Below are positions 7,228 to 35,729 of a stretch of 64,000 bases of DNA, piece after piece. The position numbers and the translations under genes are program-made. Under the pieces are notes generated by a model, which saw only the letters and a list, made by a program, of their open reading frames with translations, was not told where the DNA came from and did no database searches. Origin of the DNA: Clostridia bacterium (GTDB taxonomy: Bacteria; Bacillota; Clostridia; Oscillospirales; CAG-382). The stretch lies in assembly GCA_017537345.1 (NCBI GenBank), contig JAFYKY010000012.1:134665-198664 (forward strand), written 5' to 3'. Position 1 is the stretch's first letter. Every line of letters starts with the position of its first letter.

Positions 7228-7255
7228 TTGAATTTATGCAAAAATGTGCTATAAT
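7228..7255 (+). promoter_or_regulatory. strong extended -10 promoter driving the large ncRNA
   Basis: TTGAAT (7228-7233), 16 nt, TGcTATAAT (TG 7247-7248, -10 at 7250-7255). No ORF or RBS follows. Confidence 0.65.
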
Positions 7256-7261
7256 AAATGA

Positions 7262-7882: not shown

Positions 7883-7883
7883 T

Positions 7884-9370: not shown

Positions 9371-9372
9371 AT

Positions 9373-9520
9373 TGTGAAGAGAGAAAAGAGAAGAGTGGAA
9401 AGAAACGGAAGATTTTTGCGTAATACGCAAAAATCAACCATAATTCCCGGGGTTCCCCGAAAACGCTGTGCGTTTTTGGGGTGGGTCATTCATCATTCCT
9501 CATTCCTCGTTCCTCATTTA
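9373..9520 (+). repeat. modular repeat (purine heptamers + module A + H2 + pyrimidine heptamers)
   Basis: GTGAAGA GAGAAAA GAGAAGA GTGGAAA GAAACGG (9374-9408). GATTTTTGCG-taata-CGCAAAAATC then AACCAT. CCCCGAAAACGC-tgt-GCGTTTTTGGGG. TCATTCA TCATTCC TCATTCC TCGTTCC TCATTTA (9486-9520). Near-identical copy at 15653-15795. Confidence 0.85.
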
Positions 9521-9569
9521 TTACAGCCATTACATATCAAAAACATTTATTTAAATTTTAGGATATAAA

Positions 9570-10136
9570 ATGAAAAACATAAAAGAAAAATCCAAACGCC
9601 GTGCGCGGCGGATATGGATAACATTTGCATTTATATTCAGCTTTATAATGACCGCCCTTCTTTCGCTGCTTTCCGGCGAAGCGTTGGAGGATCTTCCCGT
9701 TTGGGCAGCGCTGGCGGTGCTGCTTATCTTTATTTTGCTGGGTATCGTGTTCGATATGATCGGTCTGGCGGTCACCACGGCGGATATTTCCGCCTTCAAC
9801 GCTATGGCGGCGAAAAAAGACCCCGTGGGCAAGCGGGCTGTATGGCTTATCGCCAATGCGGAAAAGGTATCCTCCTTTTGCAACGATATAGTGGGCGATA
9901 TCTGCGGCGTAGTTTCGGGCGCTTCGGCGGCGACCATTGCGGTGGTGCTGTTTTCGGGACTGAGCTATGAGCTTGCGTTCTGGCTCACCCTTTCTCTTAC
10001 CGCTCTGGTTTCCTCCGTCACTGTGGGAGGAAAGGCGCTGGGCAAGAAGGCGGGTATCGATAAAAACAGGGAAATAACCCTTTTATGCGCAAAAATATTA
10101 AGTGTTTTTTCGAAAAAACAAGGAAAGAAAAAGTAA
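9570..10136 (+). CDS. oapA: 4-TM membrane protein, probable OLE-associated protein A
   Basis: 188 aa (about 20 kDa). Basic N-terminus KEKSKRRARR, four hydrophobic helices, Lys-rich tail. Sits immediately upstream of dxs-tlyA-nadK-argR-recN, the position reported for oapA. Assignment is by synteny and architecture only. Confidence 0.5.
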   Translation: MKNIKEKSKRRARRIWITFAFIFSFIMTALLSLLSGEALEDLPVWAALAVLLIFILLGIVFDMIGLAVTTADISAFNAMAAKKDPVGKRAVWLIANAEKVSSFCNDIVGDICGVVSGASAATIAVVLFSGLSYELAFWLTLSLTALVSSVTVGGKALGKKAGIDKNREITLLCAKILSVFSKKQGKKK

Positions 10137-10142
10137 AAAAGT

Positions 10143-11975: not shown

Positions 11976-12694
11976 ACGTGTTTTTGGCGGAAAAGGGCTT
12001 GGCGCCCAGCCGCAGTAAAGCAAAAGAATATATAGATTCCGGCAAGGTTTTTTTAAACGGCGCCCCCGTTAAAAAAGCGGGACTGGAGGTTACGGGGACA
12101 GAGGATATCCGTGTTATGGATGCGGATAAATTCGTTTCCCGCGCAGGCAGAAAATTGGAAGCCGCTTTGGATATTTTCGGTATCGACGTTACGGATCTAA
12201 GCGCACTTGACCTTGGTGCGTCCACCGGCGGATTTACCGATTGCCTCTTGCAGAGAGGGGCAAAAAGGGTTATCGCCCTTGACGTAGGCAGGGATCAGCT
12301 TGATAAAAGCTTAAGAGAGGATGAGCGTGTTTTCGTAATGGAAAACACCAACGCCCGTGATATTTTTCCCGAAGACCTGCCTTTTTTACCGGATATTATT
12401 ACCACAGACCTTTCCTTTATTTCCCAGACTCTTGTTTACCCCGCAGTTGCAAGGGTGCTTGAAAAAGGCTACTTTATATCCCTTGTAAAGCCCCAGTTCG
12501 AAGCGGGGAGAGAGAATATCGGCAAGGGGGGAATAGTTAAGGATAAAGACGGTAAGATAAAAAAAGCGGTGCTTGAAAAAATAGAAAAAGCCGCTTCCGA
12601 AAACGGACTCCTGCTTTTGAAAACCGCCCCTTCACCCATTGCGGGAGGGGACGGAAACACAGAATATCTGGCACTTTTTGAAAGGAGTGTTTAA
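11966..12694 (+). CDS. tlyA: TlyA-family rRNA 2'-O-methyltransferase (hemolysin A-like)
   Basis: 242 aa. N-terminal S4 domain MRIDVFLAEKGLAPSRSKAKEYI. SAM motif LDLGASTGGFTDCLLQRGA. Overlaps the dxs stop by 10 nt. Confidence 0.9.
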   Translation: MRIDVFLAEKGLAPSRSKAKEYIDSGKVFLNGAPVKKAGLEVTGTEDIRVMDADKFVSRAGRKLEAALDIFGIDVTDLSALDLGASTGGFTDCLLQRGAKRVIALDVGRDQLDKSLREDERVFVMENTNARDIFPEDLPFLPDIITTDLSFISQTLVYPAVARVLEKGYFISLVKPQFEAGRENIGKGGIVKDKDGKIKKAVLEKIEKAASENGLLLLKTAPSPIAGGDGNTEYLALFERSV

Positions 12695-13483
12695 ATGAAA
12701 CGCGTTCAGCTCCTTGTAAATACGTTAAAGCCGGAAGCTCAGTACACCGCTATGAAGGTTACCGATGCCTTGACGGAATACGGTATGACAGTTACCGATA
12801 AAAATCCCGAAGCCATTATATCTATCGGCGGGGACGGTACGGTGCTTCGCGCCGCATCCATTGCCGCAAGGGCGGATATCCCCATCGTGGGTATAAACTG
12901 CGGCACACTGGGATATCTGAACGATATCGAATCGGACGAGACCGAACTTTTACAAAAATTAAAAACAGACGATTATACAGTGGATAAGCTTATGCTTCTT
13001 GCCGTCACCCTTTACAGAAAGGACGGCAGGCAGGAGGAATTTTTGGTGCTTAACGAGGTGCTGTTCTCCCGCGGGGCATCCCCCCGTATAGCGGATATCC
13101 ACCTTTATTCCGATGGTGTCCACGTTTCCGATTATTCGGCAGACGGGCTCATCTTTTCCACCCCTACGGGAAGCACGGCGTATTCCCTTTCCGCAGGAGG
13201 ACCTATTATACATCCCAGTCTTGAATCCATTACCGTTACTCCCGTTTGCCCCCATCCCACCGCATCTACCCGTGCAATAGTTTTCCCTGCGGACAGTATG
13301 CTTATGGTGGCGGCAGAGGTAAGAGGGGGCGCAAGCGCCTGCATTACCGTGGATTCCGCGCCTCCCGTGGAGTTTTGCCCCGGTGATTATGCGGTTATCC
13401 GCAAGAGCGAGCGCCACACAAAAATAGCCCGTATCAAAAACCGTAATTTCTATTCGGTTGTCCATAAAAAATTTAACGTTTGA
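12695..13483 (+). CDS. nadK: NAD kinase
   Basis: 262 aa. GGDGTVLRAA, NCGTLGYL, STPTGSTAYSLSAGGPI. Confidence 0.9.
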   Translation: MKRVQLLVNTLKPEAQYTAMKVTDALTEYGMTVTDKNPEAIISIGGDGTVLRAASIAARADIPIVGINCGTLGYLNDIESDETELLQKLKTDDYTVDKLMLLAVTLYRKDGRQEEFLVLNEVLFSRGASPRIADIHLYSDGVHVSDYSADGLIFSTPTGSTAYSLSAGGPIIHPSLESITVTPVCPHPTASTRAIVFPADSMLMVAAEVRGGASACITVDSAPPVEFCPGDYAVIRKSERHTKIARIKNRNFYSVVHKKFNV

Positions 13484-13499
13484 AAGGAAGCGGAGTAAA

Positions 13500-13958
13500 A
13501 TGAAAATAAAAAGACAAACAAAAATAATGGAGCTTATAAAAACCCGGGACGTAGATACCCAGGAAGAGCTTTTGATGCTGCTTCGCGCCGCAGGATTTGA
13601 ATGTACCCAAGCTACCGTATCCAGAGATATACGTGAGCTTAAAATAGTAAAGGCTTCCAACGGAAAGGGCGGCTACCGCTACGTTTCCGCAACCCTGCCC
13701 ACCTCCGAGCATATCGCAACCAAGTTTGCAAAGATACTTGCAGACACGGTAAAGAGCGTGGATCAGGCAATGAATCTGGTAGTGCTCCGCACCTATATGG
13801 CAATGGCATCCGCCGCCTGCATCACTATCGACGCTATGAATTTTGAAGGTATCCTGGGCTCTATCGCAGGGGACGATACCATAGTTTTAATTACCAAAAA
13901 CGAGGAAGATGCTCACCGTATCTGCGTAAAGTTAAAGGAACAGATCGGCGCGGCGTAA
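13500..13958 (+). CDS. argR: arginine repressor
   Basis: ATG 13500 preferred (GGAAGCGGAG upstream). MKIKRQTKIMELIKTRDVDTQEELLMLLRAAGFECTQATVSRDIRELK. C-terminal GSIAGDDTI. Confidence 0.9.
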   Translation: MKIKRQTKIMELIKTRDVDTQEELLMLLRAAGFECTQATVSRDIRELKIVKASNGKGGYRYVSATLPTSEHIATKFAKILADTVKSVDQAMNLVVLRTYMAMASAACITIDAMNFEGILGSIAGDDTIVLITKNEEDAHRICVKLKEQIGAA

Positions 13959-13967
13959 AAAACAGAT

Positions 13968-15632
13968 ATGCTTTTTTCATTACATATCCGCTGTGTTGCA
14001 CTTATTAAAGAATTGGATATAGACCTTTCCGAGGGGCTTACCGTCTTTACGGGTGAAACGGGCGCAGGTAAAAGTATTATCATAGATTCAATAGCCCTGC
14101 TTTGCGGCGCACGGAGCGATAAAAGTATTATCCGCACCGGTGAAGACAGCGCCGAGGTGGAGGGTGTTTTCGGTATGCTTTCTTCCGATGTGCTAAAGGC
14201 GTTGGAAACCGAAGAGGTGTACCCCGATGAAGAGGGAAATCTGTTCCTTACCCGCCGCATTACCGCAGACGGCAGAAGCGTTTCCCGCATAAACGGCAGA
14301 GTTGTGCCCGTGGGCAAGCTCCGTGCAGTTTCCGCATATCTTCTGGATATTCACGGTCAGCAGGATACCACCCGTCTGGCAGACGAAAGCATTCATCCCG
14401 CCCTTTTGGATCTGTATGCGGATAACGGCAGGGAAAAGGAAGAATATTCGGCTGCCTACCGCGCCTACACCGCCTTGCGCAAGGAAAAGCAAGAGCTGGA
14501 AGACAGTATGAACAATACCGAGGAAAGAAAGGATTTTCTTTCCTACCGTCTTAAAGAGCTTCGCCGCGCAAAGATAAAAGCGGGTGAGCAGGAAGAGCTT
14601 ACCGCAAAACGAAACCTGCTTTTAAACCGCGAAAAGATAGTGGTTTCCGCAAGAAACGCTTATTACGCCCTGTATGAAAAAGACGAATCTGCTGCTTCTT
14701 TGATTTCCGAAGCGGAGAGCGCTCTGGACACCCTTTCGGATTACGTGCCCGAAGCAAAGGATTTAAAAAACCGTCTTGAAAGCGTGCGGTTGGAAATAGA
14801 AGATATTGCGGATACCGTTACTGCCTATACCGACGATCCGGACGGCGACCCCCAGTCCGCGCTGGATAATATAGAATCTCGCCTTTCTCTCATTTCCTCT
14901 CTGTGCCGTAAGTACCGTACCGACGAGGAGGGGCTTATAACTCTCCTTACAGAAACGGAAAACGAGCTTAATTCCATAGAAAACAGCGTGTTCCGCAAGG
15001 AAGATATAGAAAAAGAGCTTGCGGATGCGGAAAAACAAGCCTCCGCCCTTGGCGAAAAGCTGTATTCCACCCGCGCCCGCGCCGCAAAGGAAATGGAAAA
15101 GCAGATAAAGGATATCCTTTACGGCTTGGATATGCCGGGAGTCACCTTTGTGACCGAGTTTGAAAAAACTCCACTTTCCCCTTGGGGTACGGAAAAAGCA
15201 AGATTTTTAATATCTGCCAATGCAGGCGAAGAGCCCCGCCCCGTTGCCAAAATAGCATCGGGCGGTGAATGTGCCCGTATAATGCTGGCGGTAAAGAGCG
15301 TGCTGGCAAACGCAGAAAATATAAGCACTATGATATTCGACGAGGTGGACACGGGTATCTCGGGAGCTACCAGCTCCCGTATCGGTATGCGGCTCAAAGC
15401 GCTGGCGGGAACGGAAAAGCAGGTTATATGCGTTACCCATTCCGCACAGATAGCCGCTTTGGCAAAAAACCACCTGCTCATTTCAAAAAGCGCATCCTTC
15501 GGCAGGACCGAAACCCACGTACGCCCCCTTTCCGGCGAAGCCCGCGTGAAAGAGGTTGCACGTATAATGGGCGGTATCGATCCGGGCGAGGAAATAATAA
15601 ACGCTGCAAGAACAATGATAAAAAACCCGTGA
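13968..15632 (+). CDS. recN: DNA repair protein RecN
   Basis: 554 aa. LTVFTGETGAGKSIIIDS Walker A, coiled-coil middle, ASGGECARIMLA signature, MIFDEVDTGISG. Confidence 0.95.
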   Translation: MLFSLHIRCVALIKELDIDLSEGLTVFTGETGAGKSIIIDSIALLCGARSDKSIIRTGEDSAEVEGVFGMLSSDVLKALETEEVYPDEEGNLFLTRRITADGRSVSRINGRVVPVGKLRAVSAYLLDIHGQQDTTRLADESIHPALLDLYADNGREKEEYSAAYRAYTALRKEKQELEDSMNNTEERKDFLSYRLKELRRAKIKAGEQEELTAKRNLLLNREKIVVSARNAYYALYEKDESAASLISEAESALDTLSDYVPEAKDLKNRLESVRLEIEDIADTVTAYTDDPDGDPQSALDNIESRLSLISSLCRKYRTDEEGLITLLTETENELNSIENSVFRKEDIEKELADAEKQASALGEKLYSTRARAAKEMEKQIKDILYGLDMPGVTFVTEFEKTPLSPWGTEKARFLISANAGEEPRPVAKIASGGECARIMLAVKSVLANAENISTMIFDEVDTGISGATSSRIGMRLKALAGTEKQVICVTHSAQIAALAKNHLLISKSASFGRTETHVRPLSGEARVKEVARIMGGIDPGEEIINAARTMIKNP

Positions 15633-15650
15633 TACAATCACGGGTTTTTA
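15621..15650 (+). terminator. rho-independent terminator of recN
   Basis: CCCGTGA (15626-15632) tacaa TCACGGG (15638-15644) then TTTTT. Overlaps the recN stop codon. Confidence 0.75.
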
Positions 15651-15652
15651 TA

Positions 15653-15795
15653 GTGAAGAGAGAAAAGAGAAGAGTGAAAAGAAACGGAAGATTTTTGCGT
15701 ATTACGCAAAAATCAACCATCCCGGGGTTCCCCGCAAAACCGCAGGTTTTGTGGGGTGGGTCATTCATCATTCATCATTCCTCATTCCTCATTAA
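15653..15795 (+). repeat. modular repeat (same composite as 9373-9520)
   Basis: GTGAAGA GAGAAAA GAGAAGA GTGAAAA GAAACGG. GATTTTTGCG-tatta-CGCAAAAATC then AACCAT. CCCCGCAAAACC-gca-GGTTTTGTGGGG. TCATTCA x2, TCATTCC x2. Ends in TTAA (15792-15795). Confidence 0.85.
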
Positions 15796-15825
15796 AAAAC
15801 GCCGCCTTTTTGGCGGCGTTTTTTA
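15794..15825. terminator. bidirectional rho-independent terminator
   Basis: AAAAAACGCCGCC ttttt GGCGGCGTTTTTT. Serves the convergent minus-strand operon ending at 15823. Confidence 0.75.
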
Positions 15826-16950
15826 TTCCTCGGGTACACTGAAATCGCTGTGTGTCATCATATCATAAAGCTTATACTCTCCGTTAACCAGATGGAAATA
15901 GAGAGAAAGGTCGATATATTCGTACTGTTCCTGCCCGTTGGTGCGTATTGCGTGCCAGGTGAACTTTACTCTGCAGGAGAACACGCCGGGGGCGTATTCA
16001 TAAAATTCAAAGGTCTGCTTATCCAAAAATTCGCACTTGCTGTGGGAAAGGGCAAAATAGTTTGCAAGTGTGCGTATTTTCTCGTAAATATCGCTTTTGG
16101 GGTCGATATACGGTCTTACGCTGTTGAAGTTTGCGCATTCCTGCGCGAACTTTGCATAATTCGTGGCAAACGCCAACGCGGTTTCGGAAAACGCTTCTTT
16201 TAATTCTTCGCTGTAATTAACGGTTGCGGTAAACGTACCGTCTTCTCCTCTGTTAACTGCGCAGGGGTCGCCGTATCTGTCGATCACGGTGATATTTTCG
16301 GTATCGTAAAGCAATCCGTCAATAACGTAGGTGGAATACCTTATTCCCTGCGTGGGGTCGCCGTTGTGGAAAACTCTGTCGGGCATATGCAGGCAGGACT
16401 CCGTATCTGCCGTTTCGGTAACGTAGCTTTGGTCAAGGGTGTATCCGTTGACCGCCACGGAAGCGTCCGAAGGGGCGATGATCTTTACGGAAACCGTTTC
16501 CACCTTGTAAAAGAACTCGTAATCTCCCATAACGTACAGAGAGTTTCCGTATTCCGTCTTTTCGCCCGAATCCACTACGGTAAACTGGGCAAAGCTGTTT
16601 TCTCCTGCGGAAACGACGTATTTCAAGGTATCGCCGGTAATAGAACCGCTTGCGGCTTCGTTATAGACTATCTCGCCGCTGCCGATCTGTTCGGTAACGT
16701 ATCTTATAAGATCTTCCTTGGTTTCCGCGGGGGAAACGGTAAAAGGCTTTGTTTCTATAAGAGCTTCGATATCCGGCTCTTTGAAATATGTGTTGAACAC
16801 GTGCTCCGCCACGTATTTGGGGCGGGTGGATTCATAATCCGCCATCCAGCTTTTTAAAAGCCCCAGACCGTATGCAACACAGCATACTCCTACCAGAACA
16901 AGCAGCGCAAGAATTGTATAAAAATATGGGAAACGCTTTGTTTTTTCCAT
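15823..16950 (-). CDS. membrane-anchored extracytoplasmic protein, function unknown
   Basis: 375 aa. N-terminal anchor FPYFYTILALLVLVGVCCVAYGL. No recognised motifs. AGGAGGGGG RBS. Last gene of a 3-gene operon. Confidence 0.55.
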   Translation of the reverse strand: MEKTKRFPYFYTILALLVLVGVCCVAYGLGLLKSWMADYESTRPKYVAEHVFNTYFKEPDIEALIETKPFTVSPAETKEDLIRYVTEQIGSGEIVYNEAASGSITGDTLKYVVSAGENSFAQFTVVDSGEKTEYGNSLYVMGDYEFFYKVETVSVKIIAPSDASVAVNGYTLDQSYVTETADTESCLHMPDRVFHNGDPTQGIRYSTYVIDGLLYDTENITVIDRYGDPCAVNRGEDGTFTATVNYSEELKEAFSETALAFATNYAKFAQECANFNSVRPYIDPKSDIYEKIRTLANYFALSHSKCEFLDKQTFEFYEYAPGVFSCRVKFTWHAIRTNGQEQYEYIDLSLYFHLVNGEYKLYDMMTHSDFSVPEE

Positions 16951-16953
16951 TTT

Positions 16954-18093
16954 TTATTCCCCCTCCTGTTTTGCTACCACGAAATAGGTGGGCATCGTTC
17001 TGGGCGGTATAAACGCCTTGTATTTGTTTACTATACCCTGAAGCTGATATTGGTCAAGGGTAGATTCATCAATGTTATATCTGGATATGTAGTTATCAAA
17101 ATACATAAGGGTGGACGTGCCGCCGTCCAGCATACCCGCAACCACTGCGCCCTGAGATACCAGCAGGTCGATAATATCGTTTCTGGATGCGCCTATACTT
17201 GCGGCGCTGCGTCCGTCGGTAACCACTAAAAGTATTGCTCCGTCCGCCCGCTGACCAATAGCGGTCCTCTGCGCCGCGCCTACGTTTCCTTCGCTGTAAT
17301 GAAGCTGAACCTTGCCGTTTTCGTTGGTAATAAGCACGTTTCCGTTCTGGAAGCAAACGCCGTCACGTATCTTAAGCTCTTCCGCTTCTTTTTTGGTCAT
17401 ACCCTCTTTAACAACAAGACGGTTGTTTTCGTCAATACCTATAAAGGTGCGGTATGCGTTATCGTTCCATACGCATTCGCCTTGGGAAAAGGTAATTCCC
17501 ATAGGCACGTTTCCCGGGCTGGAGCCGTTATCGGGGAATTCCCCTGCGTTGATAACCGTCTGGGCATTGTATTTTTGGGCAATTTCAAAAATGCGCATAC
17601 CCTTGGGCGCGGTGCCCAGATTATCGCATACGCCCACAAACACGCGGGAAGGGTCTTTTACCACGGTAAGATAAGCGCGGTAGGTAGAGCCCTGCAAAAA
17701 TTCAAGCCGCACTCCTTCGGGGTAATCCGCCCATTCATCGTATTCCTCGCCGCCGCTTACGTCTGCGCCTTCGGGAGGCTTGGGCTTGAAATCGTTAATA
17801 TCTATTTCGGTAACGGTAACCTTTTTACTGTTTTCCAATATCTCATTAATGGTTTCCTCGTCCATAAACAGACCGGGAAGCCATTTTGTTGCAGACGCCT
17901 GCTTTGCGGAAAGCACCAGCATATCTCTTAAAGCGGGGCTGGGTCCGTTTGCAAGGGTAAGTCCCAGCGCGTACACGCTTCCCACAAGGAAAAGCAGTAT
18001 GACCAGCAGGGTTATAAGGGTTCGGCGCACCACCAGCCAAAAGGTCTTGACCGCCTTGGAACGCTCTTTTTTCTCTTTGTTTCTTTTAATCAT
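16954..18093 (-). CDS. phosphodiester glycosidase family protein (DUF2233 / NAGPA-like), membrane anchored
   Basis: ORF extends to GTG 18123, but ATG 18093 (MIKRNKEKKERSK...) is preferred. TM anchor LITLLVILLFLVGSV. Domain ...VINAGEF...RTAIGQRADGAILLVVTDGR...MLDGGTSTLMY. Confidence 0.7.
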   Translation of the reverse strand: MIKRNKEKKERSKAVKTFWLVVRRTLITLLVILLFLVGSVYALGLTLANGPSPALRDMLVLSAKQASATKWLPGLFMDEETINEILENSKKVTVTEIDINDFKPKPPEGADVSGGEEYDEWADYPEGVRLEFLQGSTYRAYLTVVKDPSRVFVGVCDNLGTAPKGMRIFEIAQKYNAQTVINAGEFPDNGSSPGNVPMGITFSQGECVWNDNAYRTFIGIDENNRLVVKEGMTKKEAEELKIRDGVCFQNGNVLITNENGKVQLHYSEGNVGAAQRTAIGQRADGAILLVVTDGRSAASIGASRNDIIDLLVSQGAVVAGMLDGGTSTLMYFDNYISRYNIDESTLDQYQLQGIVNKYKAFIPPRTMPTYFVVAKQEGE

Positions 18094-19186
18094 TTTTCTT
18101 TTTTCCTCCGAACACCCACTCACGCTGTAAGGTAAAGCTGAGTATAAACAGCACGGTGTCCACCGCCGCTTTTATAAGGGTGATAACTATCTCTTTTGTG
18201 CCGTCGGGCAGTAATACGGTTATTCCGCCTACGGATGCGCCGGAAATTATCATTATAAGCACCACCAGCACGTAATACTTCAGCATCGTGTGTTTCGCTC
18301 CCGTCTGCTTTGCAAAAACAAAACGGCTGTTAACGAAATAATTGTAAAGAGAAGATATTATTCTCGCCGCCGCGGTACACAGGGCGGTGCATATAAACTT
18401 ATCTTCCGCCGTAGCCGAAAATTTAGATAAAAACAGATAAGAAAACAGGGTAAACAGCAAAAGGTCTATTCCCGTGGCGGAAAGTGAAGAAAAGGCATAG
18501 CCGAATATCTGCTTATAGATCATATAAGAATCTCTCAGGGGATTAAAATGAGAGGTCTTGTTTTCTTCTATGTAGACCGTGTCTATGGAATTTTCCGCAA
18601 AGGGTATGCCGCCTTCCTTAAAAGCAAGCAGCATATTGGTTTCGTATTCAAACCTGTCCCCTTTAACAGCCATAAGTGTGTCCAGATATTGCACGGGTAT
18701 GGCGCGTAGCCCCGTTTGCGTATCGGTTATCTTTATTCCGCAAAGGAATTTAAACACAAAAGCTGTCATTTTGTTGCCGAAAACGCTTCTTGCGGGAATT
18801 CCGGGCAGATTAAAATTGCGGGCGCCCAAAATAACCTTGCCTTCCTCCAGCATACGCATAGCGCAGGCAAGAACGTCTGCGGGGCGGTGCTGTCCGTCCC
18901 CGTCTACCGTAACCACGCCAAGACATTCGGGACGCGTCTTTCTTATATACGCAAACGCGGTCTTAAGCCCCGCGCCTTTTCCGCGGTTTATCCAGTGGTT
19001 TATTACGGTACAGCAGGGGTATTCGGCGGGGTCGGGAAAATTCTTTTCGCACTCCGCTTTGCTTCCGTCGTTAATTAAAACTATATCGGTAAAGCCAATC
19101 TCAATAAGCCCCTCAACCGTCTTTTTCAGTTTTTCATCAGGGTTGAGAGAGGGGATTATTACTGTGATCTTTGCAAGAGAAGACAT
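18086..19186 (-). CDS. family-2 glycosyltransferase fused to GtrA-like membrane domain
   Basis: 366 aa. ITVIIPSLNPDEKL, VTVDGDGQHRP (DxD-type). C-terminal 4-TM GtrA-like region. AAAGGAG RBS. Confidence 0.8.
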   Translation of the reverse strand: MSSLAKITVIIPSLNPDEKLKKTVEGLIEIGFTDIVLINDGSKAECEKNFPDPAEYPCCTVINHWINRGKGAGLKTAFAYIRKTRPECLGVVTVDGDGQHRPADVLACAMRMLEEGKVILGARNFNLPGIPARSVFGNKMTAFVFKFLCGIKITDTQTGLRAIPVQYLDTLMAVKGDRFEYETNMLLAFKEGGIPFAENSIDTVYIEENKTSHFNPLRDSYMIYKQIFGYAFSSLSATGIDLLLFTLFSYLFLSKFSATAEDKFICTALCTAAARIISSLYNYFVNSRFVFAKQTGAKHTMLKYYVLVVLIMIISGASVGGITVLLPDGTKEIVITLIKAAVDTVLFILSFTLQREWVFGGKKKND

Positions 19187-19202
19187 ATTATTTCTCCTTT
19201 AT

Positions 19203-19285
19203 TTAATGAGGAATGATGGTTGATTTTTGTTCTGCGAACAAAAATCTTCCGAAGTTTCTCGTTTCTCGTTTATCGTTCCTCGTTT
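19203..19285. repeat. modular repeat (module A inverted) overlapping the pyrR 3' end
   Basis: TTAATGAGG AATGATG. ATGGTTGATTTTTGTTC-tgc-GAACAAAAATCTTCCGAAG (19216-19254). Heptamers TTTCTCG TTTCTCG TTTATCG TTCCTCG (19255-19282). The pyrR TAA (19270-19272) lies in the third heptamer. Confidence 0.85.
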
Positions 19286-19812
19286 GGTTCTAAAATCGCA
19301 ACTTCCGTTTTTCCGTCCAGCTCTTTTACTCTTACGGCAATTTTCTCCTTGCGGGATGTGGGCACGTTTTTACCCACGTAATCGGCACGTATGGGCAGTT
19401 CGCGGTGGCCTCTGTCAATAAGGGCGGCAAGGCGTATGGCGGCAGGTCTGCCGCAAAGCATAACAGCTTCAATGGCTGCCCGCACCGTTCTGCCGGTATA
19501 CAAAACGTCGTCCACCAGAACCACGGTTTTTCCCTCCACCGCCGTTTTCAAAGGAAGCGCTTCGGTTTTGGGAATGCTTCCGTTATCATCGCGGAAGGGG
19601 GAAACGTCCAATTCCTCCACCTCCACCTCCACTCCGTAAGAGCTTTTTATACGGGCGGCTATACGGTTTGCAAGGGGAAGCCCTCTGCGCCGTATGCCCA
19701 CAAGGCAGACAGAAGAAATGTCTTCGTTTTTTTCTGCAATTTCGTGGCTTATGCGGGTGAGCGACCGCTCCAGTGATTGCTCGTCCAGCAGTATGGTTTT
19801 TTCTCTGTACAT
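19270..19812 (-). CDS. pyrR: bifunctional pyrimidine operon regulator / uracil phosphoribosyltransferase
   Basis: 180 aa. LVGIRRRGLPLA, VVLVDDVLYTGRTVRAA (PRPP motif), IDRGHRELPIRADYVG. Confidence 0.92.
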   Translation of the reverse strand: MYREKTILLDEQSLERSLTRISHEIAEKNEDISSVCLVGIRRRGLPLANRIAARIKSSYGVEVEVEELDVSPFRDDNGSIPKTEALPLKTAVEGKTVVLVDDVLYTGRTVRAAIEAVMLCGRPAAIRLAALIDRGHRELPIRADYVGKNVPTSRKEKIAVRVKELDGKTEVAILEPNEER

Positions 19813-19854
19813 ATATTTCGCCCTTAAAGGATAAATTTTTACTTTACACTACAC

Positions 19855-19882
19855 ATTATATCGGTTTTTTGATATAAGTCAA
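19855..19882 (-). promoter_or_regulatory. sigma-70-type promoter for pyrR
   Basis: Minus strand reads TTGACT (19877-19882), 16 nt, TATAAT (19855-19860). Confidence 0.55.
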
Positions 19883-19925
19883 CACATTTTCTTACATATT
19901 AATAATTAATTAACACCTATTTTCG

Positions 19926-19954
19926 TTGACAAATGCGGGGTTTTGTAATATAAT
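19926..19954 (+). promoter_or_regulatory. sigma-70 consensus promoter for the MinD-like gene
   Basis: TTGACA (19926-19931), 17 nt, TATAAT (19949-19954). Confidence 0.65.
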
Positions 19955-19985
19955 ATTATATCTGTAAAATGCGGAAGGAGGCGTT

Positions 19986-20780
19986 TTGGTTTTGGGCAGA
20001 TGTGTTTTTGTAACATCCTTTAAAGGCGGCGTGGGAAAAAGCTTTGTTTCCGCCAACCTTGCGGGTGCATTAACGGGTCTGGGCAAAAAAGTTCTTGTGG
20101 CAGACGGGGACTTGGGTATGCGCAGTATGGATATCCTGCTGGGCTGTGAAAACGCTTCTCTGTTTGATATAAAGGACGTTATATCCGGTGCTTGCCCCGT
20201 TGAAAAGGCTATTATAAAAGCAGATAAAAACGGATTTCCCGATTTCATTCCCGCGCCACAGACATACGACGGCTCTTTGCTGGACCGTGACCGTACGCAG
20301 GCATTGTTTACATACCTTAAAAGCGTGTACGATTACGTGCTTATAGATTCCTCTGCGGAATATTCGCCGTATTATTCTCTGCTTGCGTCCTGCGCGGACA
20401 CTGCGGTGATCGTTACCGCCCATCAATCCACGGCGGTGCGGGCGGCGGAAAAAACGGCAGCCCTGCTCCGTAAGGAAGGGTTAAAAGAGCAATATCTGGT
20501 AATAAATATGTTCCGCAAAAAAGAAGCGGAAAAAGGCTTACTGCCCGACCCTGCGGATATAATACTCAATTCCGCGGTGCCCCTTCTGGGAATTGTCCCT
20601 TGGGATAAAAACGCGGCGCTGGAGGCGGAAAAGGGCGGAATAGCTTTTTGCAACCCCAAAGGCAAGGCGTATTCATACGAGGCGGCGGCAGTAAACATCG
20701 CATACCGTCTTTCCGGAAGCGAAGTTCCCTTGTTCAAGGGCGTTTACCGCACCTTAAGAAGAAAATTTTATCTTAAATAA
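19986..20780 (+). CDS. MinD/ParA-family P-loop ATPase (orphan, no minC/minE nearby)
   Basis: 264 aa with TTG start after GGAAGGAGG. Deviant Walker A SFKGGVGKS. VADGDLGMRSMD. Basic amphipathic-looking C-terminus RTLRRKFYLK. Confidence 0.75.
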   Translation: MVLGRCVFVTSFKGGVGKSFVSANLAGALTGLGKKVLVADGDLGMRSMDILLGCENASLFDIKDVISGACPVEKAIIKADKNGFPDFIPAPQTYDGSLLDRDRTQALFTYLKSVYDYVLIDSSAEYSPYYSLLASCADTAVIVTAHQSTAVRAAEKTAALLRKEGLKEQYLVINMFRKKEAEKGLLPDPADIILNSAVPLLGIVPWDKNAALEAEKGGIAFCNPKGKAYSYEAAAVNIAYRLSGSEVPLFKGVYRTLRRKFYLK

Positions 20781-20816
20781 CAAAAATACTAAAGGCAAGA
20801 AAGGACGATACGTATT

Positions 20817-21215
20817 ATGGAAATAGCAATTATCGCCAACGATAAGAAAAAAGAGCTTATCACCGAATTCTGCATAGCTTATTGCGGAGTGCTTGCCAAG
20901 CACAATCTCTGTGCAACAGCTACGACAGGAAAATACATAAGCGAAGCAACGGGGCTTAAGGTTACCCGTATGCTGGCAGGCTCTCATGGCGGAGCAGAGC
21001 AGATAGCCGCCCGTATCGCATATAACGAAATAGATCTGGTTATCTTCCTTCGGGACCCTAATTCGGACGCCGAATACGTAGACAATACCCTTCAGGTCAT
21101 CCGTCTGTGCGATAGCCATAATATCCCCGTTGCAACCAATATCGCAACCGCAGAAGCGCTTATCCTCGCTCTCGGCAGAGGAGATCTTGACTGGAGAGAG
21201 ATTCAGAGAAACTAG
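20817..21215 (+). CDS. methylglyoxal synthase-like protein with non-canonical active-site residues
   Basis: 132 aa. Clear MGS fold signature (ATATTGKYISEATGL, DLVIFLRDP, IPVATNIATAEAL), but canonical AHDKKK / GGDQ / PHEPD read ANDKKK / GGAE / EYVDN. Confidence 0.75.
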   Translation: MEIAIIANDKKKELITEFCIAYCGVLAKHNLCATATTGKYISEATGLKVTRMLAGSHGGAEQIAARIAYNEIDLVIFLRDPNSDAEYVDNTLQVIRLCDSHNIPVATNIATAEALILALGRGDLDWREIQRN

Positions 21216-21352
21216 GAACGAGGAACTGGGAACTAGGAACTTCGGAAGATTTTTGCCCCAAAGGCAAAAATCAACCATTCCGGGGTTCCCCGCAAAACCG
21301 CAGGTTTTGTGGGGTGGTTAGTTCATAGTTCATCGTTTATCGTTCATCGTTC
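21210..21352 (+). repeat. modular repeat (full composite) between the mgsA-like gene and hisS
   Basis: AACTAGG AACGAGG AACTGGG AACTAGG AACTTCG (21210-21244). TTCGGAAGATTTTTGCC-ccaaa-GGCAAAAATCAACCATT. CCGGGGTTCCCCGCAAAACC-gca-GGTTTTGTGGGGTGG (21280-21317). AGTTCAT/CGTTCAT-type heptamers to 21352. Confidence 0.85.
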
Positions 21353-21372
21353 TTTTTACGGAGTAAAAACAT

Positions 21373-22632
21373 ATGGAACAAATCAAAAAGCCTCGCGGAA
21401 CCTTGGATATTCTTCCCGAGCAGACTGCCGCTTGGCAGTATATAGAAAAAACAATACGCAAAAAATGTCTTGAATACGGCTTTGGCGAAATACGCTTCCC
21501 CACCTTTGAAGCAACCGAACTTTTCTCCCGCGGTGTGGGCGACACTACCGACGTGGTTCAAAAGGAAATGTACACCTTTAAGGACAGAGATGACCGCAGT
21601 CTGTCACTCCGTCCCGAAGGAACGGCGTGCGTTGTCCGCAGTATGCTGGAAAACGGTCTTTACGCAGGGGCTATGCCTTTAAAGCTGTATTACCTTACCA
21701 ATTTCTTCCGCTATGAAAAGCCTCAGGCAGGCAGATCGAGAGAGTTTTTCCAGTTCGGAACAGAGCTGTTCGGCTCCGAATCCCCTGCGGCGGATGCAAC
21801 GGTCATCTCCCTTGCATACAGCGTGTTCAAGGAATTGGGACTTAAAGACGTGGTGCTTCACATAAATTCCGTGGGCTGTCCCAACTGCCGTCCTCTTTAC
21901 AGAGAGGCGCTGGTAAATTATTTAAGCGGTTATACGGACAAGCTTTGCCCCACCTGCCTTGAAAGACTCGGTAAAAACCCCTTGCGTGTGCTGGATTGCA
22001 AATCTCCCGTTTGCTCGGAGATAGCGAAAAACGCACCCAAGACCACACAGCACCTTTGCGAAGACTGCAAAGAGCATCTGGAAGCTCTTACCGCTATTCT
22101 TGATGCGGCGGAAATTCCTTACGTTATAGATTCCGGCATTGTAAGAGGATTGGATTATTACACCGGCACGGTGTTTGAGTTTATAGACCAGCGTATCGGC
22201 GCTCAGTCCACGGTTTGCGGCGGCGGCAGATACGATGGCTTGGTTGCCCAGCTTGGGGGACCCCAGATGTCCGGCGTAGGATTTGGTATGGGTATTACCC
22301 GTCTTATCGCCTGCTTGGAGCAGGATGGACTTTTGAAGAGCGTGGATACCGCACCGGATATCTATCTCGCTCCCGCAGACAAAGAGGTGTACACAAAGGT
22401 GTTCACTCTCTGCGAACAGCTCCGCGGTATGGGCATAAAGGCAGAAACCGACCTTTGCTCCCGCAGTATAAAAGCGCAAATGAAATATGCGGATAAGATA
22501 CACGCCCGCTACACAGCCGTTATCGGCGGAAACGAAGCGGAAACCGGCGTGGTTACGGTTAAGAATATGCAAGACGGAGCGCGATACGAGGTCAAGCTCA
22601 CGGCTACGGATATTGCTAACGCAATAAAATAA
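21373..22632 (+). CDS. hisS: histidyl-tRNA synthetase
   Basis: 419 aa. PRGTLDILPE, LSLRPEGTA, YYLTNFFRYEKPQAGRSREFFQFG, GGGRYDGL. Confidence 0.95.
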   Translation: MEQIKKPRGTLDILPEQTAAWQYIEKTIRKKCLEYGFGEIRFPTFEATELFSRGVGDTTDVVQKEMYTFKDRDDRSLSLRPEGTACVVRSMLENGLYAGAMPLKLYYLTNFFRYEKPQAGRSREFFQFGTELFGSESPAADATVISLAYSVFKELGLKDVVLHINSVGCPNCRPLYREALVNYLSGYTDKLCPTCLERLGKNPLRVLDCKSPVCSEIAKNAPKTTQHLCEDCKEHLEALTAILDAAEIPYVIDSGIVRGLDYYTGTVFEFIDQRIGAQSTVCGGGRYDGLVAQLGGPQMSGVGFGMGITRLIACLEQDGLLKSVDTAPDIYLAPADKEVYTKVFTLCEQLRGMGIKAETDLCSRSIKAQMKYADKIHARYTAVIGGNEAETGVVTVKNMQDGARYEVKLTATDIANAIK

Positions 22633-22727
22633 CTATGAACGATGAACGATGAACGAGAAACTAATGGAAACCTTTTTTCGCGCACACGCGAAAAAAGCTA
22701 CCGAAGTTCATAGTTCATAGTTTCTAC
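22631..22727 (+). repeat. modular repeat, CGCG subfamily, between hisS and aspS
   Basis: AACTATG AACGATG AACGATG AACGAGA AACTAAT. GGAAACCTTTTTTCGCG-caca-CGCGAAAAAAGCTACCGAAG. GTTCATA GTTCATA GTTTCTA. The hisS TAA (22630-22632) overlaps the first heptamer. Confidence 0.85.
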
Positions 22728-22757
22728 TATACTTTGAAAGAAGGCAAAATTAAAACC

Positions 22758-24539
22758 ATGGCAGAATTACTTGGAAATTCAAAAAGAACTCACTATTGCG
22801 GTGAGTTTACTATACAAAACGTAGGCGAGCGTGCCTGCGTAATGGGCTGGTGTCAGAGACAGAGAGACCTTGGTTCTCTTATCTTTATCGACCTGCGTGA
22901 CAGAAGCGGTATCGTTCAGCTGGCTTTTGACGAAAACACCGAAAAAGAGATTTTCGATAAAGCTTTCGGTATAAGAAGCGAATACGTGCTTTGCGCAGAG
23001 GGCGTGGTGCGTGAACGCTCCTCCAAAAACCCCCAGATCCCCACAGGTGATATTGAGATAGCGGTGGACGAATTGAAGATCCTTTCCGTATCCCAGACAA
23101 CACCTTTTGAAATAACCGAAAACTCCCGCGCAAACGAAGAGCTTCGCTTGAAGCACCGTTATCTCGACCTGCGCCGTCCCGACCTTATGCAGAATCTTTT
23201 GTTCAGACACAAGGTTGCCAAGGTCACCAGAGATTATTTTGATGAAAACGGCTTTGTGGAAATAGAAACCCCCATCCTTATCCGTTCTACTCCCGAAGGC
23301 GCAAGAGACTATCTTGTTCCCAGCCGTATCAGAAAGGGCTCCTTCTACGCTCTGCCTCAGTCTCCCCAGCTTTACAAACAGCTTTCCATGGTTGCGGGAT
23401 TTGACAGATATATGCAGATCGCCCGCTGCTTCCGTGATGAAGACCTGCGTGCGGACAGACAGCCCGAATTCACCCAGATCGACTTTGAAATGTCCTTCGT
23501 TCAGATGGAGGACGTGCTTAATATAGGCGAAGGCTACATCCGCCGTGTGTTCAAGGAAACCTTGGGCGTGGACGTACCTGCCATCCCCCGCTATACCTAC
23601 CGTGAATGTATGAACCGTTACGGCAGCGATAAGCCCGATATGCGCTTTGGTATGGAAATTGTTGATATTTCCGATATAGTCAAAGGCTGTGATTTCTCTG
23701 TGTTTACCTCCGCAGTTGCCGCAGGCGGCAGTGTAAGAGGTATAAACTGCAAGGGCTATGCGGAAAAGCTTACCCGTAAAGAGATAGACAAGCTTACCGA
23801 ATACGCAAAGGGATGCGGCGCAAAGGGACTTGCGTGGATAAAGAAGGTTGGCGGCAACACCACCTGCTCTTTCGGCAAGTTTATGACAGAGGACGAGCTT
23901 AACTGCATCTGCACCCGTCTTGATTGTACCGACGGTGACGTGGCATTTGTTATTGCAGACACAAACGATAACGCAGTGCTTACCCAGCTGGGTCAGCTCC
24001 GTGTTGAGGCGGCAAACAGACTTGACGTTCCCAGAGAAGGCTACAGCTTCCTTTGGGTAGTGGAATTCCCCTTCTTTGAAAAGGACGCGGAATCCGGCGA
24101 ATGGATGGCAATGCACCACCCCTTCACCGCGCCTCTTGATGAATGTCTGCCTTATCTTGAATCGGATAAAGGCTCGGTCCGCGCAAAGGCGTATGACCTT
24201 GTGCTTAACGGTATCGAACTGTCCTCCGGCTCTATCCGTATAACCGACCCTGCTTTGCAGGCAACCATTTTCCGTCTGCTTGGTCTTTCCGATGAAGAAG
24301 CACAGCAAAAGTTCGGCTATCTGCTGGATGCATTCAAATACGGCGCACCTCCCCACGGCGGTATGGCGCTGGGTCTGGACAGACTTGTAATGCAGATGCT
24401 GGGCGCTCCCACCTTGCGTGACGTTGTGGCGTTCCCCAAGGTATCCAACGCATCCGAGCTTATGACAGACTGCCCTGCCGAAGTACCTTTGCAGGCACTT
24501 GCGGATCTGGGTATAAGTATAGATAAACAGGAGAAATAA
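22758..24539 (+). CDS. aspS: aspartyl-tRNA synthetase
   Basis: ORF opens at TTG 22734, but ATG 22758 (MAELLGNSKRTHYCGEF) is preferred. WCQRQRDLGSLIFIDLRDRSG, FRDEDLRADRQPEFTQID, GGMALGLDRL. Confidence 0.93.
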   Translation: MAELLGNSKRTHYCGEFTIQNVGERACVMGWCQRQRDLGSLIFIDLRDRSGIVQLAFDENTEKEIFDKAFGIRSEYVLCAEGVVRERSSKNPQIPTGDIEIAVDELKILSVSQTTPFEITENSRANEELRLKHRYLDLRRPDLMQNLLFRHKVAKVTRDYFDENGFVEIETPILIRSTPEGARDYLVPSRIRKGSFYALPQSPQLYKQLSMVAGFDRYMQIARCFRDEDLRADRQPEFTQIDFEMSFVQMEDVLNIGEGYIRRVFKETLGVDVPAIPRYTYRECMNRYGSDKPDMRFGMEIVDISDIVKGCDFSVFTSAVAAGGSVRGINCKGYAEKLTRKEIDKLTEYAKGCGAKGLAWIKKVGGNTTCSFGKFMTEDELNCICTRLDCTDGDVAFVIADTNDNAVLTQLGQLRVEAANRLDVPREGYSFLWVVEFPFFEKDAESGEWMAMHHPFTAPLDECLPYLESDKGSVRAKAYDLVLNGIELSSGSIRITDPALQATIFRLLGLSDEEAQQKFGYLLDAFKYGAPPHGGMALGLDRLVMQMLGAPTLRDVVAFPKVSNASELMTDCPAEVPLQALADLGISIDKQEK

Positions 24540-30951: not shown

Positions 30952-30954
30952 ATA

Positions 30955-31042
30955 TCATTTTACGGGGTGCTGTATAATATATACGGCTGAGAACATACCC
31001 GATGAACCTGTCAGATAATACTGTTGAAGGGAGAAGACGTGT
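30955..31042 (+). promoter_or_regulatory. TPP (THI-box) riboswitch aptamer
   Basis: ACGGGGTGC ... CTGAGA ... ACCC ... GAACCTG ... ATAATAC ... GGGA, matching the conserved TPP aptamer core. Located upstream of thiT. Confidence 0.85.
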
Positions 31043-31072
31043 AAAAGCGTTTGGAAAATGGTAAAAAATTAT

Positions 31073-35708: not shown

Positions 35709-35729
35709 AGTAATTCCTCATTTCTTATT

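Follow-up and report, generated by a model that had tools for sequence, protein, structure and literature searches.

Mosaic intergenic repeats with inverted heptamer arms and exchangeable hairpin modules in uncultured gut Clostridia

We analysed a 64,000-nucleotide stretch of the genome of a Clostridia bacterium (contig JAFYKY010000012.1, positions 134,665 to 198,664; hereafter the window), in which the spacer between an MGS gene and hisS contains a repeat element at positions 21207–21354. The family of intergenic repeats to which this focal element belongs is dense and mosaic. On the plus strand the element consists of five AGGAACN-type heptamers, a hairpin designated module A, a second hairpin designated module H2, and five NGTTCAT-type heptamers, and it reads exactly as an earlier note on this DNA had laid it out. 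The purine-rich 5′ arm (21207–21242; AGAAACT AGGAACG AGGAACT GGGAACT AGGAACT) supplies, from its first heptamers, the TAG that terminates the MGS gene upstream (21213–21215). Module A (21239–21278) reads CTTCGGAAG-ATTTTTGCC-CCAAA-GGCAAAAAT-CAACCAT or, divided more finely, CTTC-GGAAG-ATTTTTGCC-CCAAA-GGCAAAAAT-CAACC-AT; it is closed by GG/CC, contains an A·A/A·A internal loop, and folds as DNA at −10.6 kcal/mol (z −5.1). The H2 cassette (21279–21318), which reads CCGGGGTTCCCCG-CAAAACC-GCA-GGTTTTG-TGGGGTGG, or CCGGGG-TT-CCCCGCAAAACC-GCA-GGTTTTGTGGGG-TGG in terms of its parts, forms a 12-bp hairpin with a conserved G·T pair. The pyrimidine-rich 3′ arm follows (21318–21354; TAGTTCA TAGTTCA TCGTTTA TCGTTCA TCGTTC), and the ATG of hisS lies 18 nt downstream of its end. 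Folded as RNA, the whole unit gives −66 kcal/mol (z −7.45). The focal copy is identical in L017; because that identity spans a near-100% identical tract of about 600 bp that includes the MGS gene, it does not reflect constraint on the element, and special conservation of this copy was rejected.

Units of this family share a common plan, in which a purine-rich heptamer array is followed by a hairpin core (A or the GTAG-tagged A′), optional cassettes of about 40 nt, and a mirror-image pyrimidine-rich array. Core A has the form GG-AA-G-ATTTTTG-(apical stem and loop)-CAAAAAT-C-AA-CC, with the GG/CC closure and A·A/A·A internal loop seen in the focal copy, and is palindromic apart from the internal and apical loops. 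Core A′ reads GGTAGC-TTTTTTCGCG-loop-CGCGAAAAAA-GGTTTCC, and a shorter core, A″, reads GGTAG-TTTTTTGC..GCAAAAAA. GGTAG stands directly 5′ of the stem in 5/5 A′/A″ cores of the window; the earlier note overlooked this tag on A′, as well as the nature of the cassettes as separate units. H2 follows the pattern (C)CGGGG-T(T)-CCCCG..TGGGG-TGG, with the 12-bp hairpin and conserved G·T pair, and occurs as two subtypes, the TT form lying mostly inside arrays and the single-T form (H2b) often solitary beside T-runs. Relatives also carry module G, TTTAGC-(variable stem)-GCGTCGCATT, and the window holds 10 GTAG-GGG hairpins (module R), including two tail-to-tail doublets. All of these modules (A, A′, H2, G and R) are hairpins of 24–42 nt, and in the window they are intergenic except for the H2 and R copies inside an open reading frame (ORF) resembling a repetitive extragenic palindrome (REP)-associated tyrosine transposase (RAYT), described below.

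The earlier note proposed a modular intergenic family with dyad symmetry, and the excess of its components over chance confirms that the family is real. The heptamers (unit types GAAYKAK, AATGAKG and GWGAAGA) form period-7 arrays that Tandem Repeats Finder (TRF) recovered at the loci listed in that note. When an array detector was applied to periods 5–11, with 30 dinucleotide shuffles as control, period 7 was the sole clearly enriched period, with 20 arrays (602 nt) against a shuffle mean of 1.3 and maximum of 5. Period 6 gave 5 arrays, equal to the shuffle maximum of 5, period 9 gave 6, marginally above a maximum of 5, and array counts at periods 5, 8, 10 and 11 were within the shuffle range. 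Nineteen of the 20 period-7 arrays are intergenic or abut a gene end; the remaining one, at 4267–4285 inside a PALP gene, looks like a chance match. The H2 pattern matches 10 times in the window against 0.01 expected, and CGGGG(N0-3)CCCCG 10 times against 0.68.

The extent of the family in the window had been overstated at 18 loci, roughly 2.5 kb and about 4 percent of the sequence; 16 loci were in fact listed, and they amount to about 1.9 kb or 3.0%. A single building plan describes ten of them in full (those beginning at 2392, 9373, 15653, 19203, 21210, 22631, 41925, 44690, 54942 and 62585). The loci at 3338 and 53578 are half units, and those at 7884–8227, 35711–35802, 52077–52110 and 56534–56575 consist of H2-type or GTAG-hairpin modules and show scarcely any heptamer or A structure, or none. 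Two H2 copies, at 3540–3575 and at 8918–8953 inside the RAYT-like ORF, had been missed.

Whole units do fold into the long imperfect hairpin that the earlier note had predicted; their RNA z-scores lie between −4 and −11 for units with matching arm types and are weaker for mismatched ones. The arms are imperfect reverse complements across the family and not specifically within an individual element, since complementarity is 18.0 of 28 positions for arms of the same element versus 18.1 of 28 for arms of different elements (p = 0.6), and we therefore reject co-evolving arms. Because the arms of one element are not co-adapted, the long hairpin is a property of the family and not of each copy. A purine arm is found on the 5′ side of either strand, which is simply how an inverted repeat appears. 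The arms show no significant avoidance of long perfect pairing.

The cores themselves are consistently paired. The apical part of core A occurs as 57 variants among 130 distinct copies, and when all 130 were counted 61% of its bases were paired, versus 8% in shuffles; the stem classes include TTC/GAA, CGT/ACG, CCC/GGG, CAC/GTG, CCG/CGG, TCC/GGA and CAA/TTG. In an alignment of 39 A cores, picked from 60 by leaving out imperfect stems and altered flanks, 501/501 cells are standard pairs (37–57% in slid controls). Double-sided changes occupy 47 cells at five pairs of this alignment compared with 10.5 in shuffles, none of 500 shuffles reaching as high, and the hairpin thus covaries as had been claimed. 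Loop-reversed variants (GCA/TGC, AAA/TTT) are common. The variants of core A are discrete, multi-copy sequence types common to 3–7 metagenome-assembled genomes (MAGs) at non-orthologous sites, which argues for copying from templates, with amplification limited to hairpin-competent types.

No Rfam family matched the elements at gathering or E ≤ 1 thresholds, the best score being 24 bits against a threshold of 97, and a known Rfam RNA was rejected as an explanation; within the window OLE RNA alone passes its gathering score and a TPP (thiamine pyrophosphate) riboswitch falls just below. Nor did we find a named family in the searchable literature, which omits most subscription journals, so that the earlier impression of an unnamed family stands. 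Intrinsic terminators were likewise rejected: terminator-like calls number 25 versus 19.7 ± 5.4 in shuffles, tails are poor, and T-runs lie 5′ of the stem. The cores are not canonical intrinsic terminators because this 5′ T-run pairs with a 3′ A-run; judged from this arrangement, they would be the inverse of a bidirectional terminator and should permit read-through.

The family reaches well beyond the window, to which the earlier note had allowed that it might be confined. At least 101 distinct exact A cores are present in 75 stretches from at least 8 species-level MAGs, which carry the labels Clostridia, Eubacteriales or uncultured Oscillospiraceae; goat cecum, cattle colon, yak rectum and water-deer cecum are the sources of several. 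The window belongs to a 178-kb metagenomic contig (ENA ERZ28019117 k141_892065), its sequence is identical in independent assemblies, and the repeats are therefore not an assembly artefact. Its G+C content is about 0.475, and it has the gene order dxs-tlyA-nadK-argR-recN. This gene order and the OLE RNA point to Firmicutes, the relatives are Clostridia MAGs, and there are only three HIP1 GCGATCGC sites in 64 kb; a cyanobacterial origin of the kind suggested by short tandemly repeated repetitive (STRR) sequences or HIP1 was rejected. The A-core and H2 patterns are without match in the phage contigs of IMG/VR, and a phage origin was rejected as well.

The arrangement of modules was determined for 244 distinct clusters from about 570 kb (the window and 75 loci). 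Their order is near-invariant: purine array, optional H2 or G on the minus strand, core, optional H2 or G on the plus strand, pyrimidine array. With R and Y here denoting the purine and pyrimidine arrays, the cluster counts include 'R A+ Y' (45), 'R G- A+ Y' (13), 'R A+ H2+ Y' (8) and 'R Ap+ Y' (8). The cassettes are also polarised, H2 having its CGGGG end toward the core in 42/44 cases and G its TTTAGC end toward the core in 40/40.

Comparison of orthologous spacers between species, with flanking genes 81–97% identical, shows that the same spacers are occupied in most species, and that heptamer type, core (A or A′), core orientation, and the presence of H2 or G vary. At the carB–pyrK site (62585–62689 in the window) the A core is inverted in relatives L056 and L049. 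Some sites are empty: the MGS–hisS site has no element in L038, although the flanking genes are present, and the Pribosyltran–ParA site is empty in four species and filled in L038. In L036 the latter site holds a four-helix-bundle gene flanked by two elements. We note that this insert, which lies in a promoter region orthologous to window positions 19813–19991, encodes a 120-aa four-helix-bundle protein (TIGR02436, E 5e-29), and that the MGS C-terminus of L038, where the MGS–hisS site is empty, is different and longer.

Turnover is evident at the level of strains, for which we compared 10 contigs with an identical MGS protein and hisS 94.5–100% identical to that of the window. Between hisS and aspS the window element is the reverse complement of the L092/L093 element over 89/89 aligned nt, with collinear flanks that are 94–96% identical; it has been inverted in situ, the breakpoints falling within its outer heptamers. 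Arrays differ by single heptamers (±7 nt) in L092 at MGS–hisS and between L086 and L087. H2, which the earlier note placed between core A and the pyrimidine array, is in relatives also found in the left arm, in the opposite orientation; among strains it occupies the left arm in L087 and the mirrored place in the right arm in L090, where it is of another sequence type, and others have none. H2 joins at the heptamer boundary GTT/CAT without target duplication. The M48–MatE site of L005 has two tandem H2 copies in the 3′ arm, again with the GTT/CAT junction, whereas the window has none there. At GT2–Pribosyltran strains differ in the apical stem type and in the heptamer type of the left arm, each having been replaced. 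H2 junctions show 0–4 nt of variable overlap or microhomology. Comparison of filled with empty sites gave no fixed-length target duplication at MGS–hisS, Thia–Gly_transporter, M48–MatE or hisS–aspS, and a TTAA target or fixed duplication was rejected as inconsistent, TTAA being absent at many ends. When further strain-level empty sites were sought by way of the ThiT and YlbF proteins, no informative variants emerged. The family is thus mosaic, with a strict dyad grammar and paired hairpins, and its strains differ by inversion, 7-nt slippage, and the gain, loss and swapping of cassettes.

Using the called genes of the window, 16/28 intergenic regions of at least 20 nt hold a module, with occupancy of 1/7 for divergent, 10/15 for co-directional and 5/6 for convergent regions. 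The elements avoid divergent promoter regions (1/7 versus 15/21 for the others; Fisher p = 0.023). In a scan of 9000–23000 the two best sigma-70-like matches fall in an element-free divergent region, and none of the listed promoter hexamer pairs lies inside an element. Within operons the spacer is filled by the element, whose end falls 14–33 nt short of the following start codon. The MGS, hisS and phosphoribosyltransferase genes each have a stop codon that adjoins, or is provided by, the element downstream; these stops (21213–21215, 22630–22632 and 19270–19272, respectively) lie within the first heptamers of the adjoining arrays. Elements in convergent regions sit between two terminator-like hairpins.

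On balance we favor the reading that these are lineage-specific, DNA-level mosaic repeats, akin to REPs and bacterial interspersed mosaic elements (BIMEs), of uncultured gut Clostridia of the Oscillospiraceae/Ruminococcaceae type, and we hold this to be probable. It would be a known type of system, REP/BIME, that is new in joining STRR-like heptamer arms with nested hairpin cassettes, and is apparently undescribed. The REP, BIME and REPIN systems of Proteobacteria with their RAYTs (PMC3116915, PMC3733652, PMC6006769) share with the present family short, high-copy, extragenic hairpins arranged in mosaics, and the GTAG tag that is found beside the stem in A′, A″ and R is the one by which the largest REP superfamily is defined (PMC3733652). 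Further likenesses are discrete sequence types, stems whose pairing is kept from variant to variant, tail-to-tail doublets (R here), a single RAYT-like gene in a housekeeping context, and occupation of operon spacers and convergent-gene gaps. The differences are that the host is a Firmicute, that the commonest core, A, has GAAG for GTAG and that H2 and G are untagged, that inverted heptamer arrays flank the hairpins whereas REPs and BIMEs are without arrays, and that the RAYT-like ORF has GTAG hairpins inside its frame instead of flanking it and scores below the family cut-off.

Heptamer repeats provide a second comparison. The STRR units of heterocystous cyanobacteria are CCCCAGT, TTGGTCA and CAACAGT; none of these is a unit here, in a host from a Clostridia MAG lineage. 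Among intergenic heptamer simple sequence repeats, cyanobacterial STRRs, GGGAATC of Xanthomonas, GGGGAYT of Nostoc and TAACTGA of Beggiatoaceae have been described (PMC2670836, PMC4692102, PMC4679880). As in those repeats, the tandem 7-nt units occur solely in intergenic DNA, related species use the same sites with strong variation in length and sequence, and some arrays are inverted and hairpin-forming, such as that of hupS-hupL. The unit sequences and host phylum are unrelated, however, and the arrays described here are almost always mirror-paired around a conserved core, with nested cassettes; TAACTGA repeats are almost all direct.

Nostoc also reportedly carries small dispersed repeats (SDR). 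These resemble the present modules in being units of tens of nucleotides that are separately insertable, nested in each other and in conserved repeat settings, and without an obvious transposase, but H2, G and A are 30–42 nt hairpins with variable stems, their sequences and host are unrelated, and the insertion context here is a heptamer boundary with fixed orientation. The Correia MITEs (miniature inverted-repeat transposable elements) of Neisseria and the pneumococcal BOX, RUP and SPRITE elements are about 100–150 bp long, with inverted ends or a modular A-B-C build. Our elements are like them in size, intergenic position, expected co-transcription with neighbours and fold potential, and unlike them in having no fixed target duplication, no parent insertion sequence (IS), array ends of variable length, and no sequence similarity. 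The likeness to MITE, BOX or BIME elements drawn in the earlier note is therefore apt as a comparison, with the reservation that neither a consistent target-site duplication nor a parent IS was found in the sequence examined.

If the repeats are of the REP/BIME kind, their cassettes would spread by hairpin-dependent, strand-specific copying, probably on single-stranded DNA, a route suggested by their fixed polarity, the absence of duplication and the asymmetry of the conserved G·T pair. The most plausible catalyst would be the RAYT-like Y1 HUH enzyme encoded at 8693–9370, as Y1 HUH enzymes act on single-stranded DNA in a matching style of copying. Arms would be resized by polymerase slippage, and cores flipped or converted by recombination between inverted arms. 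Elements would persist where they are harmless, in the gap from a stop codon to the following ribosome-binding site or between convergent genes, and transcribed copies would fold into long imperfect hairpins, with possible protection of the mRNA upstream. A more specific proposal, which we regard as tentative and rather doubtful, is that the 30–42-nt cassettes (H2, G and A/A′) are themselves mobile, inserting strand-specifically and without duplication at heptamer boundaries, with the arrays as landing pads. Were this so, mobile cassettes and arm-mediated inversion would make most non-promoter spacers self-renewing, invertible palindromes, and the family would be a Firmicute counterpart of the unexplained SDR phenomenon of Nostoc, with a candidate enzyme. 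Precise insertion of SDR5 into HIP1 has been documented (PMC4390886).

The candidate enzyme is a 225-aa RAYT-like Y1 HUH ORF (8693–9370, +) in whose sequence an HUH motif (NHIHLL) and a C-terminal FQRSYHDHVIRD..NYIENNP block with a tyrosine can be read. Among called genes in 74 kb of the contig no other transposase was found; to that extent the earlier note was right to single it out, but its link to the family is weaker than supposed, with sub-cut-off scores and with repeats absent from the loci of distant homologues. It is the only candidate mobiliser found, and the link is weak; the specific involvement of the enzyme is about half as probable as the REP/BIME-like reading as a whole. An A+H2 unit directly follows the ORF, and RAYTs are typically flanked by cognate REPs. 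In-frame GTAG hairpins lie at 8843–8868, 8891–8913 and 9098–9123 (minus strand), with the H2 cassette at 8918–8953. At least 1,387 homologues exist, some of them named RayT by the Joint Genome Institute (JGI), with lengths of 133–265 aa among the matches listed. In homologues 75–96% identical, segments derived from R or H2 are present or absent in frame, and we note that strain-variable in-frame H2 and R insertions contribute to the range of homologue lengths. H2 is found at three different places of the gene in three species, which is further evidence that H2 moves on its own. When its repeat-derived segments are removed, the L024 orthologue matches REP_Tyr_transpos with E 8.9e-17. The inverted pair of in-ORF GTAG hairpins is kept in 4/4 close orthologues and in the 40%-identical L083; L082, at 41% identity, has just one such hairpin, which is located outside the ORF. 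The paired hairpins lie on either side of the HUH motif and encode peptides of the ..TVGDDV..VP.. and ..G.T..SSPT.. types (L024, L045, L050, L083 and L084). If the enzyme is indeed involved, this candidate RAYT subfamily bears its own GTAG hairpins, inverted, in its reading frame, possibly for self-regulation. The locus of L084, a 64%-identical homologue, has heptamer arrays, A, A′, H2 and G all present.

Several observations weigh against the REP/BIME-like reading, and against the part of the enzyme in particular. The ORF scores 54 bits (E 1.5e-14) against NCBIfam REP_Tyr_transpos (NF047646), below the cut-off of 80, and 20 bits against PF01797, below the cut-off of 23, and because it is interrupted by repeat-derived inserts the product may be inactive. 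Heptamer arrays, A, A′, H2 and G are all absent from the 20-kb loci of two homologues of 40–41% identity (G+C 0.41 and 0.54), so that the heptamer family is far narrower than the enzyme subfamily. The GTAG-GGG hairpin is the sole module consistently tied to the RAYT-like gene, and A (which has GGAAG), H2 and G are without the GTAG tag, one of the two tetranucleotides (GTAG or CGTC) that mark an end of the REP palindrome. Positional conservation across species and the use of both hairpin orientations are equally expected of selected RNA structures, and all of the observed changes could in principle be attributed to homologous recombination, gene conversion and slippage alone.

These last points correspond to two serious rivals. 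Turnover could be free of any dedicated enzyme, with slippage acting on the arrays, template switching, hairpin-templated repair or gene conversion producing the hairpins and their symmetry, and recombination between arms causing inversion. The ±7-nt indels, the exact inversion and the replacement of cores are all within reach of recombination and slippage, H2 junctions show variable microhomology of 0–4 nt and no fixed duplication, loop flips (GCA/TGC, AAA/TTT) are common, and the family does not co-occur with distant RAYT homologues; slippage has also been discussed as a source of heptamer excess (PMC4692102). We nonetheless consider this account rather unlikely, because elements or cassettes occur at sites that are empty in relatives (Pribosyltran–ParA, filled in L038, and H2 at differing codons of the RAYT-like ORF), because the polarity of H2 and G toward the core is almost invariant, and because sequence types common to several species look like sequence-specific template copying. 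Somewhat less probable again is that the elements are primarily selected RNA structures of operon spacers, acting as hairpins that block 3′ exonucleases, as RNase III sites, or as modulators of translational coupling. The purine arm does contain Shine-Dalgarno (SD)-like GAGG/AGGA and the pyrimidine arm anti-SD-like CCUC, spacers stay occupied in most species despite replacement of their sequence, and the elements end 14–33 nt before a start codon while often abutting or supplying the upstream stop. Dyad symmetry would give the same RNA architecture in either orientation, the folds are strong with covarying stems, the cores lack a 3′ U-tract and so could be read through, and similar proposals exist for cyanobacterial STRR hairpins (PMC2670836) and TAACTGA repeats (PMC4679880). 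However, the copy at 15652–15795 lies between convergent genes and outside both terminator-like hairpins, where little transcription is expected, H2 and R modules are inserted in coding sequence, the orthologous MGS–hisS spacer of L038 is empty with its flanking genes kept, the arm pairs are not co-adapted within an element, and loop flips and whole-element inversion are DNA-level events. An RNA role is compatible with the DNA-level account that we prefer, the two not being mutually exclusive.

Two further explanations fail their defining tests. MITEs, as deletion derivatives of an IS with heptamer arrays for terminal inverted repeats and a DDE transposase acting in trans, would account for a length of 80–150 bp, the lack of coding capacity and arms that resemble inverted terminal repeats (about 18/28 positions complementary). 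Similarity of arms that is family-wide instead of within-element is expected of transposase-binding ends, many copies end in TTAA or TAA, and presence/absence polymorphism is seen. This explanation is nevertheless improbable: filled and empty sites show no consistent target-site duplication, TTAA is absent at many ends, called genes in 74 kb of contig hold no transposase besides the RAYT-like ORF, arm length varies freely in 7-nt steps, and the cores are exchangeable cassettes. The exact inversion of one element between two strains with collinear flanks, together with the differing core orientation between species at the same site, might instead suggest invertons, that is, programmed switches flipped by a site-specific recombinase so as to alter neighbouring expression. 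We give this very little credence, as the element is near-palindromic and its inversion alters little sequence, the strongest sigma-70-type matches of 9000–23000 lie outside elements, the called genes include no invertase or recombinase gene nearby, and modules in 16/28 intergenic regions are unlike the distribution of phase-variable loci. Integron attC sites were rejected on gene content, the flanks being syntenic housekeeping genes with no integrase.

REP/RAYT biology and the origins of intergenic heptamers have been studied almost solely in Proteobacteria and cyanobacteria, and this family unites REP-like and heptamer-repeat phenomena in one element of a Firmicute lineage. Natural strains display its dynamics directly: elements invert, slip in 7-nt steps, gain or lose cassettes and exchange cores. 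The elements occupy most operon spacers, provide genes with stop codons and generate what are probably spurious ORFs (3527–3982 and 7871–8227). They probably break MAG assemblies at repeats, and callers of phase variation based on inverted repeats would score them as invertons. They could also be used to tell strains of uncultured rumen and hindgut Clostridia apart at high resolution.

The remaining complete units of the window differ in core, arm type and setting. The element at 2392–2487 (−) has a GTAG-tagged A′ core (2440–2477) with one long and one short arm and lies between ProS and the next gene. A full unit at 9373–9520 (+), immediately 3′ of the RAYT-like ORF, has a GAGAAGA-type arm, A, H2 and a TCATTCC-type arm, and the full unit with H2 at 15652–15795 (+) sits between the terminator-like hairpins of the convergent RecN gene and a 375-aa ORF. 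At 19203–19285 (−) core A is on the minus strand, and a heptamer gives the phosphoribosyltransferase gene its stop codon. The unit at 22630–22727 (−), with an A′ core, is the element between hisS and aspS that is exactly inverted in strains L092 and L093. Between the YlbF and MutS genes the unit at 41924–42023 (+) carries a core A variant in which the closing A-T pair is replaced by C-G. A unit with core A and a decayed second arm (44690–44785, −), in the 5′ region of an NlpC/P60 gene, is the sole copy in a divergent intergenic region. A full unit with an A core (54942–55039, +) occupies the whole spacer between the MatE and peptidase M48 genes, and the full unit between carB and pyrK (62585–62689, +), with an A′ core, has TTAA at both sides. 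The half unit at 3338–3442 (+) comprises TTAATGATGAA, a minus-strand H2 (3351–3386), a GGAATGA array and a GTAG-tagged T-run hairpin (3416–3440), and that at 53578–53680 (+) a minus-strand GTAG-tagged T-run hairpin (53579–53602), a plus-strand H2 (53611–53646) and a pyrimidine arm ending in TTAA.

Other modules occur alone or in mixed clusters, the latter at 3338–3590, 7886–8227 and 41924–42125. An H2 cassette is nested in a GTAG hairpin at 3540–3575 (−). An H2b hairpin of the CGGGGACCCCG type at 7886–7983 (−) has in its loop an insert of about 75 nt that contains a GTAG hairpin (7913–7936), and a second H2b hairpin, at 42028–42125 (+), is split by the same R-containing insert (GTAG hairpin at 42075–42098); the stems of the two differ by compensatory changes. 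Their common insert, a GTAG hairpin with a ACATATCACG motif, is a module nested in a module. The cluster in the OLE/oapA spacer (8030–8227, −) contains H2b (8030–8063), a GTAG hairpin (8106–8131), H2 (8135–8168), and GGGGTGGG with a short TTCCTCA array ending in TTAA. Solitary H2b cassettes lie at 35767–35802 (+), beside a terminator-like hairpin and with a short array remnant at 35711–35731, and at 52077–52110 (+). A symmetric H2-like hairpin (CCCACCCC...GGGGTGGG) followed by one heptamer is at 56534–56575. The REPIN-like tail-to-tail doublets of GTAG hairpins, at 3459–3534 and 52205–52288, are of the GTAG-GGGACG type and share an identical, conserved 31-nt linker, CCCCTACGATTATCGAATAGCCGTGGCTGTT; they form a family distinct from the heptamer elements.

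The neighbourhood of the RAYT-like gene contains a full-length OLE RNA (7249–7896, +; 385 bits, E 1e-109), followed by a repeat-packed spacer of 345 nt and a 154-aa ORF (8242–8706, +) without a family hit. This ORF is at the position expected for oapA, appears hydrophobic by eye, and overlaps the start of the RAYT-like gene; a pairing of small ORF and RAYT is also present in L084, beside recF and gyrB. A 23-nt direct repeat, AAAATATCAAACAGACAGTGGGA, at 7984–8006 and 8169–8191, in each case after an H2 copy in the OLE/oapA spacer, fits no defined module. ORFs of 151 aa (3527–3982, +) and 118 aa (7871–8227, +) traverse repeat clusters without family hits and are probably spurious products of the repeats, and one of the two is annotated as a gene in the public assembly. 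A TPP riboswitch aptamer at 30953–31049 (+), which is followed by a terminator-like hairpin and lies upstream of a Thia_YuaJ thiamine transporter gene, scores 53.7 bits against a gathering score of 54.3 and is probably genuine. Finally, in regions orthologous to window positions 51861–52572 and 22633–22757, constant heptamers (ATATCAC in L005, L053 and L064, and GTTACAT in L036) act as spacers between unrelated short hairpins, an arrangement that reverses the usual logic of constant repeats and variable spacers.

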